Shown here piece by piece: positions 5,974-26,009 of a stretch of 30,130 bases of DNA. The stretch lies in IMG/VR virus record IMGVR_UViG_2778261177_000009, positions 1-30,130 of that record. One strand, given 5' to 3'. This DNA is from a virus. Lineage: Duplodnaviria; Heunggongvirae; Uroviricota; Caudoviricetes. Positions within the stretch are counted from its first letter, which is position 1. Each line of letters starts with the position of its first letter. The position numbers and the translations under genes were made by a program. The notes under the pieces were generated by a model that saw only the letters and a program-made list of their open reading frames with translations, was not told the origin of the DNA and made no database searches.

Positions 5974-5990
5974 ATTACCTTTCAGGTAAT
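5974..5990. promoter_or_regulatory. TTACC-N5-GGTAA palindrome, site A (ATTACCTTTCAGGTAAT)
   Basis: Perfect 7-3-7 inverted repeat in the gap between the tailspike start and the LexA-box gene; member of a six-site family. Confidence 0.5.
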
Positions 5991-6046: not shown

Positions 6047-6065
6047 ATTGCATGGAGAAGATAAG

Positions 6066-6323
6066 ATGCAGCAGTATCACTATCCACTGGAAGAGGGATT
6101 TACCGAAAGGATTCACACGCCGGGAGGCGTCAGGTCACTGGTGGAGGGATCGCACTTGATGAAATTACTCCGGGATCTCGATAAGGATGGATTTAATGTC
6201 GATGGCCCACTTGCCGAACTGACTGCACTGATTAACTACGTCACCAGCTCACAGATGTCTATGCGGGATCTGCAAACACATCTCGACTATTGTGCCGAAC
6301 AATTACGAAAACAAACCCGGTAA
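6066..6323 (+). CDS. small SOS-regulated protein, candidate antirepressor-type module
   Basis: First in-frame ATG with GGAG RBS (the ORF track starts at a TTG at 6048); LexA box just upstream; about 40 percent identical by eye over about 75 aa to the C-terminal domain of the AntA-domain protein at 7474..8130. Confidence 0.6.
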   Translation: MQQYHYPLEEGFTERIHTPGGVRSLVEGSHLMKLLRDLDKDGFNVDGPLAELTALINYVTSSQMSMRDLQTHLDYCAEQLRKQTR

Positions 6324-6327
6324 ATTT

Positions 6328-6350
6328 AAAGGCCGCAAGAGCGGCCTATC
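6328..6350. terminator. hairpin terminator between convergent genes
   Basis: Stem GGCCGC / GCGGCC with loop AAGA, T-rich sequence on both sides; overlaps the stop of the minus-strand gene 6346..7074. Confidence 0.45.
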
Positions 6351-7074
6351 GTTTCGCTTTGTGCTCATCCCAGCACGTTTTGCACCATGCCATTAAACCA
6401 TCCGCATTTTGATTATTAGGGTAAAAGCTGGTTCGTTTTCTGCGGACATTACAAATTGGGCACCACTTCATATGGCGTGTATTCTTTGGGCCATCGAGAC
6501 ACCTTGCACACCACTTAGTCAATCCATCTGGATTTTTTGACGATTTCCTGAATTTTTCATATGGAAGGTTTATTCTGCATCGCAAGCACTGCTTGCTACC
6601 ACTTGAGACTCTATTAGCTGATTCTTCTTTTGGCGGCGATACAGAAGGTATTCTTGCTGGCTCTGATACTGCCTGAGGTGCTTTTTTAGATGACTGAGAC
6701 GATATGTCATCACCAGGGAATCTTCCATGATATGCCGGAGGCGTTGACACTCCAGGTGGAAGCTCAGCTGTAAACGGCTTTGGCTGAATCAGTTGCCTCT
6801 CTTTTGCTAACTCCTGCTGTTTATAATATGTCTGGATTACCGCACTATCATAAGCAGGAGGTGCGGAAATATTAGGCGCATTACCTCCAGTTTTTTGAAA
6901 CTGAGTAGAGGTGTGTTCTATCACCTGTGTACGATTAATCGTTATCTCTCCATCTTCGGTCTTTATCGTTTTGTTATGATTAACGACCGTACGATCAGAG
7001 ATCTTAGTCTTGTTCTGGTTGATAACGTAAATAATCACCGCAACCACACCAACAACTATCCAGAAAACTTCCAT
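6346..7074 (-). CDS. membrane-anchored protein with two tandem C-x2-C-x22-C-x2-C zinc-ribbon repeats
   Basis: GAGGA RBS; N-terminal TM helix (VFWIVVGVVAVIIYVI), Pro/Ser-rich linker, then two repeats CLRC..(22)..WCARC and CPIC..(22)..WCKTC sharing a DGL-x2-WC core. Confidence 0.6.
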   Translation of the reverse strand: MEVFWIVVGVVAVIIYVINQNKTKISDRTVVNHNKTIKTEDGEITINRTQVIEHTSTQFQKTGGNAPNISAPPAYDSAVIQTYYKQQELAKERQLIQPKPFTAELPPGVSTPPAYHGRFPGDDISSQSSKKAPQAVSEPARIPSVSPPKEESANRVSSGSKQCLRCRINLPYEKFRKSSKNPDGLTKWCARCLDGPKNTRHMKWCPICNVRRKRTSFYPNNQNADGLMAWCKTCWDEHKAKR

Positions 7075-7093
7075 TGCTTTTCCTCACAATAAC

Positions 7094-7110
7094 ATTACCT
7101 TAAAGGTAAT
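7094..7110. promoter_or_regulatory. TTACC-N5-GGTAA palindrome, site B (ATTACCTTAAAGGTAAT)
   Basis: Perfect palindrome 20 bp upstream of the start of the minus-strand gene 6346..7074; includes a TACCTT that could be a plus-strand -10 preceded by TTGCTT. Confidence 0.5.
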
Positions 7111-7186
7111 ATCTTGCTTTCAGGTGATCAAGCGTTAAACGCAACCAACCAAATACGGTTGATTTTAATATTTCTTCGTGTTTATC

Positions 7187-7204: not shown

Positions 7205-7292
7205 TTACATCGCACTCCTCTTGTGCCATAGTAATCGGGCACTGGCAAAATCCAGTGCCGGGATTGGTCTCCCGGATTACTAAGTGGCGCAT

Positions 7293-7316
7293 ACCACGCC
7301 AGACGTGGTTTTTTTA
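7293..7316 (+). terminator. intrinsic terminator inside the 5' leader of the antirepressor-like gene
   Basis: Stem ACCACG / CGTGGT with loop CCAGA followed by TTTTTTT; preceded by another stable hairpin (GGCACTGG / CCAGTGCC, 7238..7259). Confidence 0.45.
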
Positions 7317-7473
7317 TGCGTATAGCACAGTCATGCCAGAATTATGGTGGGCTGAATGGGGGTCCGAAAGGACGCCGGTACCACTTAGGCCGGTAAGACC
7401 AACTCCGTTCAGTTCACCACCATCTGATTGGTCTCAGCGGTGGTGATGTAATTCGCTAAGTGGAGACACCATC

Positions 7474-8130
7474 ATGAACGCTCAACTCATCCCCGTATTC
7501 AACGGCACTATATCTAACGAAACAGCCCTACTTTGTAATGCCCGCGATCTGCACGCTTTTTTAGGTGTTAAAAAGGTGTTTGCAGCATGGATTACAAATC
7601 GCATTTCAGAATACGAATTCATTGAAAATCAAGACTATATTTTGCTTTCCAATTTGGGAAAGCAAACATCTGGTAGAGGCGGCCACAACCGCAAAGAGTA
7701 CCACCTCACCCTCGATACAGCCAAAGAGCTGGCAATGGTCGAGCGTAACGAAAAAGGTCGCCAGGTGCGACGCTACTTCATTGAATGCGAGAAACGTTTA
7801 AGACAACAAGAAACAAAAGTGGAGAACGTCTTGTCAGGCTTCATGCCCGCCATTATGGAGGCGATCAAGCTGGAAGACAAAAAAGAATACAGCGCCCCAC
7901 TGAAGCCCGGCTACCGCAGCCTGATTCACTCGCCGTCTGGTGTTCTCGGCCTGACGGAGAACTCACTGCTGATGAATCTGCTGAACCAGTTACAGGACGA
8001 CGGGCACGACGTATCGGGCGCGGCGGCGGAACTGACCACCATGTTCTGCTACATCGTCGGTGTGAGCAAATGCCTGCGTAATATCCAGACACACGCGGAA
8101 TACATCAACGACAAGGCAGGGTTCTTCTGA
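7474..8130 (+). CDS. phage antirepressor-like protein, AntA-type N-terminal domain plus C-terminal domain paralogous to 6066..6323
   Basis: GGAG RBS; N-terminal region ([33 protein letters not shown] ... [35 protein letters not shown]) matches the AntA/AntB antirepressor domain from recall; C-terminal about 80 aa aligns with the LexA-box gene product. Confidence 0.7.
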
Positions 8131-8259: not shown

Positions 8260-8586
8260 ATGACAAAACTTGGATTCGTGATGAGAGGTCCGGTAAGAAG
8301 CGGAACTCATGCAAAGCGTAGCAAGAGTCGTATTTTTACTGGTAAGGTTGTAGCACGTAAATCAGCTATTGGCTCGTTCAATAGTGAAAATGCGGCATTG
8401 CGCCATATTTTTATCAGCACAAAGCCAAGAGCATCCGCTGATGTGCATACAATGTCTATTCCTATCACAAAGAGTATAAAGCGGATAAAAAAGCTCTCAT
8501 CTGCAGAATCAAAAGAGATATCTTTCCGCCAGCTTAACTCATTAGAAACGCATATGAAGGAAGAGGAATTCGATGTTTTTGAGTGA
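8260..8586 (+). CDS. small basic protein, first gene of a two-gene operon (candidate antitoxin/regulator)
   Basis: GGAG RBS 7 nt upstream; Lys/Arg-rich N-terminal half and acidic C-terminus (EEEFDVFE); overlaps the downstream gene by 14 nt; AT-rich. Confidence 0.45.
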   Translation: MTKLGFVMRGPVRSGTHAKRSKSRIFTGKVVARKSAIGSFNSENAALRHIFISTKPRASADVHTMSIPITKSIKRIKKLSSAESKEISFRQLNSLETHMKEEEFDVFE

Positions 8587-9085
8587 GTATAGCGGGAAGG
8601 TTATACCTACTGGTGAGTTTAAAACTGATGACTTTCTGATTTCGCTAAAAGATGCTTTTAAACAACACTGGCGTCATGGTCATCATCCTGATCTGGGAAA
8701 AGATACTCTTTTTGAAAGACCAGACGAAGTATTAGGTTTCCATCTCAGAAAGGTTCATGTCAATATTGGTGAATATGCATCATATTCATACTCATGTACT
8801 GAACAGTGTTGGGATGAGTGGTCATACGGATTGATTGATGAACAAGGAAATTACAGGCCAAAACCAACCAGTAACGCATATCTCATATATGCAGTCAATG
8901 AAATAAGAGATGCAGCCTTACTAGCTTATTGGGACCCGCCCGCACACACCAAAGCTAACGCAAAAGTTTGGATGGATTCCGTATTGAATTTCACAAAATT
9001 ATTTCATGAACGAACGAATACAGCTCCACTTAGTAGAAATGTTTATCCGTGGGATTATTCGTACAAATCCAAAAAGCCTGCATAG
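8573..9085 (+). CDS. hypothetical protein, weak collinear similarity to YafO-family toxins (candidate toxin or abortive-infection effector)
   Basis: AGGAAGAGGAA RBS inside the upstream gene; by eye three collinear blocks resemble E. coli YafO (GKDTLF vs GRDALY; RKVHVNI vs ERVAHIH; AYLIYA..AALLAY vs AHLVYC..AWLLIA); His-rich motif HWRHGHHPD; AT-rich. Confidence 0.5.
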   Translation: MFLSEYSGKVIPTGEFKTDDFLISLKDAFKQHWRHGHHPDLGKDTLFERPDEVLGFHLRKVHVNIGEYASYSYSCTEQCWDEWSYGLIDEQGNYRPKPTSNAYLIYAVNEIRDAALLAYWDPPAHTKANAKVWMDSVLNFTKLFHERTNTAPLSRNVYPWDYSYKSKKPA

Positions 9086-25573: not shown

Positions 25574-25602
25574 TTGACATTTAACGCACGAATTATTACC
25601 TT
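25574..25602 (+). promoter_or_regulatory. sigma70-like promoter (TTGACA, 17-bp spacer, TACCTT) overlapping palindrome site D
   Basis: Perfect -35 hexamer TTGACA at 25574..25579; the TAnnnT hexamer TACCTT at 25597..25602 lies inside the palindrome; oriented toward the tRNA and the plus-strand ORF. Confidence 0.45.
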
Positions 25603-25932: not shown

Positions 25933-26009
25933 GTGGCATTAGCTCAGTCGGACAGAGCAACCGCCTTCTAAGCGGTTGGTCGCAGGTTCGAATCCTGCAT
26001 GCCACGCCA
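25933..26009 (+). tRNA. tRNA-Arg (anticodon UCU), phage-borne
   Basis: Hand-folded cloverleaf: acceptor GTGGCAT/ATGCCAC, D-stem GCTC/GAGC, anticodon stem ACCGC/GCGGT with loop CTTCTAA, T-arm GCAGG-TTCGAAT-CCTGC, discriminator G and encoded CCA. T-arm matches E. coli argU as recalled. Confidence 0.85.

Follow-up and report, generated by a model that had tools for sequence, protein, structure and literature searches.

A conserved prophage gene for a predicted membrane-tethered tandem zinc finger is a candidate phage-exclusion gene

Why would a temperate phage encode zinc fingers that are tied to a membrane? The question is raised by the 30,130-nucleotide stretch of DNA analyzed here (the window; positions 1 to 30,130 of IMG/VR record IMGVR_UViG_2778261177_000009, Caudoviricetes). 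Its minus strand holds, from 7074 to 6346, an open reading frame (ORF) for a 242-amino-acid product that combines an N-terminal transmembrane (TM) helix, a long linker and two putative zinc modules. A first-pass annotation, made from the sequence alone, had listed superinfection exclusion, sequestration of a regulator and sensing of incoming DNA as possible roles. Of these, a role in exclusion or defense is best supported, because the gene recurs beside the repressor gene cI or beside antirepressor (ant) genes. The family occupies addresses typical of exclusion genes from Escherichia to Acinetobacter, Aeromonas, Pseudoalteromonas and Haemophilus, yet has neither a name nor a PADLOC model. It is conserved but uncharacterized, and we see in it a promising single-gene candidate for a new protein of phage exclusion or abortive infection.

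The gene, its family and its prophage

The ORF (6346..7074, minus strand) matches phrog_6762 of the PHROGs collection, a family with no function assigned, over its entire length (E = 1.2e-149; residues 1-242 on profile positions 1-242 of 242). A Shine-Dalgarno sequence, GAGGA (7081..7085, minus strand), lies 6 nt 5' of the ATG. Over 20 distinct E. coli alleles, the ratio of nonsynonymous to synonymous substitution rates (dN/dS) was 0.26 for the whole protein; by region, it was 0.07 for the zinc domain, 0.30 for the TM helix and the hairpin that follows it, and 0.62 for the linker. By this measure the zinc domain is the most constrained region of the protein. The low dN/dS, down to 0.07 in the zinc domain, argues that the ORF is translated; an untranslated ORF was one of two outcomes named by the first-pass annotation as refuting its proposal. 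The other, a breakdown of the Cys pattern in homologues, fell away as well, since all eight cysteines are invariant in an alignment of 55 sequences.

Could the ORF still be spurious, or a decaying remnant without function? The annotators of phage TL-2011b called no coding sequence at this position, and some alleles are frameshifted. Yet the ORF is intact in TL-2011b itself, full-length homologues occur in many genera, phrog_6762 is matched from end to end, and selection on the zinc domain is strong, as its dN/dS attests. We count this explanation as refuted already, within the reach of sequence evidence, and give it virtually no weight. These comparisons show that the gene is genuine and under purifying selection.

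In the GenBank record of TL-2011b, the region 34153-35241 (L001 6528-7616) bears only a 1,089-bp misc_feature, "similar to hypothetical protein", which spans the intact 242-amino-acid ORF together with a small RNA (sRNA) region.

A first search returned 33 clusters of homologues, with full-length homologues down to about 40% identity. A profile search over 1.84 billion representatives gave 1,732 matches at E<=1e-3, and 48 further clusters (50% identity) proved to share the architecture: an N-terminal TM segment, a spacer and exactly two modules. The x22 spacing within the module is kept in nearly all 48, and the protein ends 1-12 residues past the last Cys. Genome and viral-contig scans placed members in Escherichia, Superficieibacter, Enterobacter, Citrobacter, Salmonella, Serratia, Providencia, Pectobacterium, Buttiauxella, Edwardsiella, Yersinia, Aeromonas, Acinetobacter, Oceanobacter, Marinobacterium, Neptunomonas, Pseudoalteromonas and Haemophilus; a relative from Neisseria has a single module. 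Judged by these matches, relatives with the same architecture span the Gammaproteobacteria. Literature searches on TL-2011b and phiV10, on Stc1 domains or zinc ribbons in phages, and on zinc and transmembrane proteins in superinfection exclusion turned up no description of the family.

Two distant members, P0077 and P0084, bear the precomputed Pfam accession PF27269.1, and a newer Pfam release may already hold a family that covers part of these two proteins. Four near-identical E. coli alleles (P0008, P0010, P0017 and P0182) carry a frameshift in the linker and encode products of 120-167 amino acids, which keep the TM helix and hairpin and lose the zinc fingers. Such alleles could be real pseudogenes or assembly errors.

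Over the stretches searched, the window is 100% identical to a chromosomal prophage of E. coli strain MB31. Matches in the tailspike, ejection-protein, portal and terminase genes place the prophage in the epsilon15/phiV10 group (Uetakevirus). Alignment with phiV10 revealed an insertion of about 860 bp at roughly 6325-7185, and this accessory cassette (6325..7185) comprises a terminator, the gene, its ribosome-binding site and an operator/promoter region. In phiV10, ZX5, HEMP4, phiv142-3 and others, both flanks match and the gene is missing; among sequenced phages, only TL-2011b carries it. We found the cassette in 133 of 5,426 complete E. coli genomes, that is, in about 2.5%, and the neighboring epsilon15-gp19-like gene in 529, so that about a quarter of such prophages have the cassette. 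These comparisons identify the gene as a moron, an accessory gene of an E. coli prophage related to epsilon15 and phiV10.

A membrane anchor, a disordered tether and two Cys4 fingers

The single N-terminal TM helix proposed by the first-pass annotation was borne out. The mean Kyte-Doolittle hydropathy over residues 1-18 is 2.66, and AlphaFold2 places a helix at residues 3-20 (7015..7068, minus strand) with a predicted local distance difference test (pLDDT) score near 90. The n-region before the helix is not basic, and K22, K24 and R28 follow it; consistently, the C-terminal flank of the helix is more positive than the N-terminal flank in 41 of the 55 homologues. Hydropathy, the model and the flank charges together predict a signal anchor with an N-out/C-in orientation. 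A cleavable signal peptide was considered and rejected, given the non-basic n-region, the hydrophobic run of 18 residues and the lack of an AxA-type site.

Next to the membrane, a conserved segment (residues 26-55; 6910..6999, minus strand) is predicted from alignment and model to form a beta-hairpin with an E-D-G-E turn, at low pLDDT (45-56); conservation in this post-membrane part of the protein runs over residues 22-55 with a T..G..ER pattern. It is followed by a variable tether (residues 56-158; 6601..6909, minus strand), which is disordered in the AlphaFold2 model. Its 103 residues include 15 Pro, 14 Ser, 11 Ala and 9 Gln, in agreement with the Pro/Ser-rich linker noted earlier. Over the 55 aligned members the spacer between TM helix and zinc domain varies from 41 to 175 amino acids. 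Residues 160-242, in contrast to the tether, are modeled with pLDDT >90 in the full-length prediction (mean pLDDT of a domain-only model, 89.6). This C-terminal domain has a net charge of +14, which is also the mean for the 55 members, whose median pI is 9.8.

On which side of the membrane does this domain lie? The distribution of flanking charges, the Cys4 chemistry and the occurrence of the same module in nucleases and helicases lead us to place the fingers in the cytoplasm. The converse arrangement, N-in/C-out, would put a disulfide-bonded Cys-rich domain in the periplasm, where it could plug the ejection conduit from outside in the manner of classical superinfection-exclusion (Sie) proteins. 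Indeed, most described injection-blocking Sie proteins work at or outside the membrane (PMC10883804), and eight cysteines could form four disulfides. Nevertheless, the positive charges come after the TM helix, a domain of +14 is a poor substrate for translocation, and the sequence offers neither a signal-peptide-like n-region nor a cleavage site. Moreover, the confident model has a zinc-knuckle-plus-helix arrangement, and the relatives of the module are all found in nucleases or helicases, which are presumably cytoplasmic. We therefore regard a periplasmic location as very improbable.

The C-terminal domain consists of two modules of equal Cys spacing, C163-x2-C166-x22-C189-x2-C192 and C205-x2-C208-x22-C231-x2-C234. 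Module 1 (residues 161-193; 6496..6594, minus strand) follows the pattern K-x-C-x2-C-x22-C-x2-C and contains F175, D183-G184 and W188; module 2 (residues 203-235; 6370..6468, minus strand) has an additional basic patch, R211-R214. The two align without gaps at 13 identical positions out of 37 (35%; BLASTP E = 2e-7 in a single comparison), which substantiates the tandem repeat described by the first-pass annotation. All eight cysteines are invariant in 31 Enterobacterales homologues. Among the 55 aligned sequences, most of which share just 21-40% identity with the window protein, the eight cysteines and W188 are the only residues invariant family-wide. Assignment of secondary structure to the models with DSSP puts the first CxxC of each module in a beta stretch and the second at the start of a helix. 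Each module thus appears, in the models, to adopt a zinc-knuckle-plus-helix (treble-clef) arrangement, as in LIM and Stc1 fingers and in the scaffolds of His-Me nucleases.

A profile search for the repeat, suggested earlier as a check, returned Stc1 (PF12898) as the sole Pfam family matched; the window protein scored 21.0 bits (E = 5e-4), short of the gathering cut-off of 24.8 bits. Stc1 was matched at E<=0.01 by 20 of the 55 family members (best E = 1.8e-6), and soluble relatives of the module reached 32-61 bits, above the curated cut-off. In a Foldseek comparison with the PDB, the top solved structure was the tandem zinc finger of Stc1, 2LUY (E = 4.6e-3, probability 0.84). Stc1 is marked by two consecutive Cys4 fingers, and the invariant cysteines, the structural match and the DSSP pattern point to the same arrangement here. 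The models thus support an assignment of both modules as Stc1-type Cys4 fingers that probably bind zinc. Stc1 itself is a soluble fission-yeast protein that links Ago1 to the CLRC complex, and its tandem finger is a protein-binding module. The window protein resembles it in having tandem Cys4 fingers with Stc1 as best solved-structure match, and differs in that its fingers are membrane-tethered, very basic and phage-encoded.

The second group of relatives is found among nucleases. The best matches among the predicted viral structures of BFVD were N-terminal finger arrays of HNH/EndoVII nucleases from phages and giant viruses (E about 1e-7), and PHROG matches extended to "endonuclease VII", HNH, primase and Lar-like families. 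The Cys4 scaffolds of the beta-beta-alpha-Me nucleases Hpy99I and PacI also match the modules structurally; by sequence, a search of the PDB returned PacI only, and marginally (E = 0.12). The module further occurs in soluble proteins as arrays of 3-12 copies, some of them fused to helicases of superfamilies 1 and 2 (SF1/SF2) or to winged helix-turn-helix domains. All these classes share the consensus K-x-C-x2-C...F...DGL...C-K-x-C, and in all of them each module has a net charge of +4 to +8. The likeness to His-Me nucleases (HNH, Endonuclease VII, PacI, Hpy99I) is confined to the Cys4 scaffold: the window protein has no nuclease domain, carries its two modules at the extreme C terminus and is anchored by a TM helix. 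Neither it nor any of the 55 members has a Pfam match to Endonuclease_7 or HNH. The 55-sequence alignment has no position at which His, Asn or Tyr is conserved, and for this reason we do not take the modules for nucleases; a degenerate nuclease was likewise rejected, as residues of catalytic type are not conserved.

The kinship with Ogr/Delta-type fingers suggested by the first-pass annotation did not hold up. The resemblance lies in the 22 residues that separate the two Cys pairs. In P2 Ogr, the second pair is C-x4-C, and the protein is small, soluble and single-fingered and contacts RNA polymerase; here the second pair is C-x2-C. Ogr_Delta (PF04606) was not matched by the window protein at E<=1, nor did the Pfam matches of the 55 members at E<=0.01 include it. 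In view of the missing PF04606 match, the two fingers and the TM anchor, identity with Ogr/Delta fingers was rejected.

Placement in immunity regions and predicted expression

Relatives of the gene occur at two kinds of address. The first is the gap between tailspike and ejection-protein genes in epsilon15-like prophages of Escherichia, Enterobacter, Serratia and Superficieibacter. In these enteric lineages the gene stands beside antirepressor genes of Bro-N, KilA-N/ANT, pRha or AntA type and is often the last before the ejection-protein gene; in five loci (L002, L004, L079, L083 and L085) its direct neighbor is the last ejection-protein gene, at the border of the antirepressor region. In an Acinetobacter prophage (L012) it occupies the equivalent gap, between a T7-tail-fiber-like gene and three large virion-protein genes. 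The second address is directly beside a CI-type repressor gene (Pfam HTH_3 plus Peptidase_S24). The gene lies 15-54 bp downstream of cI on the same strand in L013, L016, L020, L094/L098/L101 and L104, is separated from cI by one small membrane ORF in L014/L102, and is convergent with cI in L015, L019 and L103, abutting it in the first two. In the annotated record of Aeromonas phage phiARM81mr, Cro and the CI repressor are followed by an 18-bp gap and then the gene. Across the loci compared, the gene always lies in a phage immunity region, and these positions, near cI or the ejection genes, are those of lambda rexAB and P22 sieA.

No conserved downstream partner gene was found across the loci compared. 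The neighbors differ in every lineage, several of them being small ORFs with signal-peptide-like hydrophobic N termini. Since no partner is conserved, the gene appears to be a single-gene module. In Marinobacterium-type prophages, the gene 3' of the zinc-finger gene overlaps it by 34 nt (L016 8654-9307, L104 5654-6307). The L016 product has a staphylococcal-nuclease domain and an Excalibur calcium-binding domain, and its nuclease gene comes third there, after cI and the zinc-finger gene.

Such linkage to repressor and antirepressor genes would also suit an accessory of the immunity circuit, in which the tethered fingers hold a protein (the repressor, the antirepressor, a sigma or late factor, or a host factor) at the membrane; as a variant, the finger domain could itself be a regulator that is freed by cleavage of the disordered tether. 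The +14 charge and conserved Lys/Arg positions that the fingers share with nuclease- and helicase-fused modules speak against these two possibilities, as does the lack of a conserved partner gene, with downstream neighbors that vary by lineage. Furthermore, cI and immI regions are general hotspots for morons, which makes linkage alone weak evidence. Jointly, we consider sequestration and its regulator variant unlikely. Should regulator sequestration nevertheless be true, the gene would be a new element of the antirepressor immunity circuit of epsilon15/P1 type.

In the window, the gene is transcribed divergently from an antirepressor gene (7474-8130, plus strand; Pfam AntA domain), as the first-pass annotation had noted. 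Rfam models detect, directly upstream of ant and both above the gathering score, an IsrK-like Hfq-binding sRNA (7239-7315, plus strand; 67.7 bits) and a C4 antisense RNA (7340-7424, plus strand; 61.2 bits). Because of these two RNAs upstream of ant, we read the region as an immI (c4-ant) locus of P1/P7 type.

The palindrome reported earlier before the start of the gene is also there. It is a perfect ATTACC-N5-GGTAAT palindrome, ATTACCTTAAAGGTAAT, at 7094-7110 (7094..7110), 19 bp upstream of the ATG, and is a putative operator of the immunity repressor. A putative -10 element, TACCTT (7103..7108, minus strand), lies inside it, and a putative -35 element, TTGATC (7126..7131, minus strand), is 17 bp from TACCTT. 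A standard sigma-70 scan reported no promoter for the gene, the putative promoter being below the scan threshold. Our proposal follows from conservation of the TTGAyC-17-TACCTT layout across lineages rather than from match quality: TTGACC or TTGAAC, 17 bp and TACCTT recur in Enterobacter-, Serratia- and Citrobacter-type loci, and the palindrome lies 33-40 nt before the ATG in 7 related loci.

The motif is not confined to this promoter. The window has 8 ATTACC-N5-GGTAAT sites against 0.9 expected, among them those at 5974, 7094, 7187, 8202, 25595, 28758 and 28776; the sites at 5974, 7187, 8202 and 25595 precede plus-strand gene islets. The complete genome of TL-2011b (L009) has 17 sites against 1.3 expected. 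They include cI/cro intergenic sites and sites that flank a consensus leftward (PL-like) promoter just downstream of the repressor gene, and another lies just before the small terminase gene. The simplest reading is that the palindromes are a dispersed set of putative operators for the phage's 194-amino-acid helix-turn-helix repressor, which in TL-2011b (AEW24553) has the Pfam domain HTH_3 and no S24 domain. P1 C1 controls a comparable dispersed multi-operator regulon. The publication on vB_EcoP_ZX5, a close relative that lacks the gene, holds no data on operators or repressor sites.

A second perfect palindrome, TGTGACATGTCACA, is found in several enteric relatives (L078, L079, L083 and L010) and not in the window, about 25 bp upstream of the -35 element of the homologous gene. 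It resembles CRP half-sites, but with a spacer of 4 bp instead of 6 bp.

With its -10 element inside an operator-like palindrome, the gene is predicted to be repressed while the lysogen is stable and to come on with infection or induction. For the cI-linked lineages, where it would be co-transcribed with cI, the prediction is the opposite, expression in lysogens. Partial repression, or a role early in infection or during establishment, are possible ways out of this clash.

Expression on infection or induction would suit yet another role, in which the protein helps early development of the phage itself by tethering its genome or transcripts to the membrane for replication, transcription or protection. 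Protein p16.7 of phi29, with its N-terminal TM helix and C-terminal DNA-binding domain, offers a parallel. The apparent membership of the promoter in a dispersed repressor regulon, with an operator over the -10 element, the basic domain, and a match of one module to a Lar-like restriction-alleviation PHROG (E = 2.7e-9) all lean this way. Yet about three quarters of the very similar E. coli prophages, as well as phiV10 and ZX5, do without the gene, which must hence be dispensable for growth. Moreover, in lambdoid-type phages the gene is in the cI transcription unit, which lysogens express, and it varies in its orientation to the late genes. On balance, a part in the phage's own development seems distinctly unlikely to us.

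Some neighboring features of the window deserve mention. A GC-rich hairpin terminator predicted by a terminator scan (6330..6347, minus strand) sits at the stop codon of the zinc-finger gene and is shared with the convergent ORF 6048-6323 (plus strand). This ORF, a homologue of epsilon15 gp19 (phrog_450), shares homology with about 85 residues at the C terminus of Ant, the product of gene 7474-8130 (plus strand), residues 135-216 of which also match phrog_450; it is a free-standing copy of the Ant C-terminal domain. Downstream of ant, ORF 8573-9085 (plus strand; 170 amino acids) matches phrog_1651 (no function assigned) over its full length; its score for the YafO toxin family, 19.7 bits, falls short of the cut-off of 25. 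A toxin-like moron of the same immI region is a possible identity. Finally, the late operon on the minus strand has, between its portal and terminase genes, a plus-strand islet that contains a tRNA-Arg(TCT) gene (25933-26009, plus strand), which is preceded by the palindrome copy at 25595.

Proposed role and comparison with known systems

What, then, might the protein do? The reading that we favor, tentatively and short of calling it probable, is that of a cytoplasm-facing, membrane-tethered nucleic-acid binder employed in conflicts between phages, similar in outline to AbiP, PdpSau and SieA and homologous to none of them. It is suggested by the combination of an accessory gene under selection, a TM anchor, a long tether, a basic tandem finger, placement in immunity regions and the lack of a partner. 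The link to nucleic acids comes from the relatives of the basic fingers, which decorate nucleases and helicases.

If the topology, zinc binding, nucleic-acid binding, timing of expression and role in exclusion or defense that we infer are right, this would be a single-pass inner-membrane protein with two residues outside the membrane and the remainder in the cytoplasm, where the TM helix would be followed by the juxtamembrane hairpin, a flexible tether of roughly 100 residues and two Cys4 fingers devoid of catalytic residues. On the cytoplasmic side of the membrane, the fingers would bind nucleic acid, candidate ligands being phage DNA as it leaves the ejection conduit, or early transcripts. 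The outcome might be a block to productive entry or establishment of the superinfecting genome, i.e., superinfection exclusion, or else an abortive response like those of AbiP and PdpSau.

A bolder version, possible but doubtful in our estimate, would make the family a widespread, hitherto overlooked single-gene exclusion or Abi system of temperate phages in Gammaproteobacteria, in which catalytically dead targeting fingers of the type in viral His-Me nucleases capture incoming phage DNA or early RNA, an event that the TM helix and hairpin would translate into a block or damage to the membrane. In this form the protein would be a cytoplasm-facing counterpart of SieA, or a zinc-finger analogue of AbiP and PdpSau, encoded at cI and ant loci.

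Several observations weigh against a role in exclusion or defense by nucleic-acid binding. Every database name of family members is "hypothetical" or "uncharacterized"; the protein matched no PADLOC model and had no usable match in NCBIfam. Frameshifted alleles account for about 34 member sequences, compared with 424 in the intact cluster. An abortive response would call for an effector domain, and none is present unless the TM helix and hairpin oligomerize. The ligand could be a protein, given that the tandem finger of Stc1 binds protein. The repression predicted for lysogens fits a role early in infection or at induction better than classical exclusion, which is lysogen-expressed. Lastly, known Sie proteins act mostly on the outer side of the membrane (PMC10883804), and this domain is predicted to be cytoplasmic.

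If the protein does exclude or abort phages, it would represent a new sensor architecture, membrane-tethered zinc fingers derived from the targeting modules of nucleases, and would bear on the host range available to phage therapy in E. coli, Enterobacter, Serratia and Acinetobacter.

Genes beside cI or in immI have been a classical source of exclusion and defense functions (rexAB, sieA, sieB and lactococcal sie). Among these, lambda rexAB is co-transcribed with cI, and in several lineages the gene studied here likewise follows cI by 15-54 bp on the same strand; it differs from rexAB in being a single gene of unrelated sequence, which in the window lies in immI rather than immC. P22 sieA maps where the gene lies in the five loci named above, on the antirepressor border next to the last ejection-protein gene. 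Like SieA, the window protein would be an inner-membrane accessory protein of a temperate short-tailed phage, but SieA lacks zinc fingers and is predicted to have three TM segments, compared with one TM helix here. No exclusion-protein annotation was found among the Pfam, PHROG and PADLOC matches; a direct sequence comparison with SieA was not part of these searches. SieA targets the periplasmic and membrane conduit formed by gp20 and gp16 (PMC10883804).

The closest parallels in architecture come from Gram-positive hosts, unlike that of the window prophage. In AbiP of Lactococcus, a TM helix and a domain that binds RNA and single-stranded DNA independently of sequence are both required (PMC13064643). 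PdpSau, from an S. aureus prophage, joins a TM helix to a basic cytoplasmic domain resembling the oligonucleotide/oligosaccharide-binding (OB) fold and depolarizes infected cells (PMC10127798). Nucleic-acid binding is demonstrated for AbiP and predicted from the OB-like fold for PdpSau. The three share no relationship of sequence or fold, the window protein having zinc fingers where AbiP and PdpSau have an OB-like domain. What they have in common is the plan: a single protein in which an N-terminal TM helix is joined to a basic domain, here of charge +14 and predicted to face the cytoplasm.

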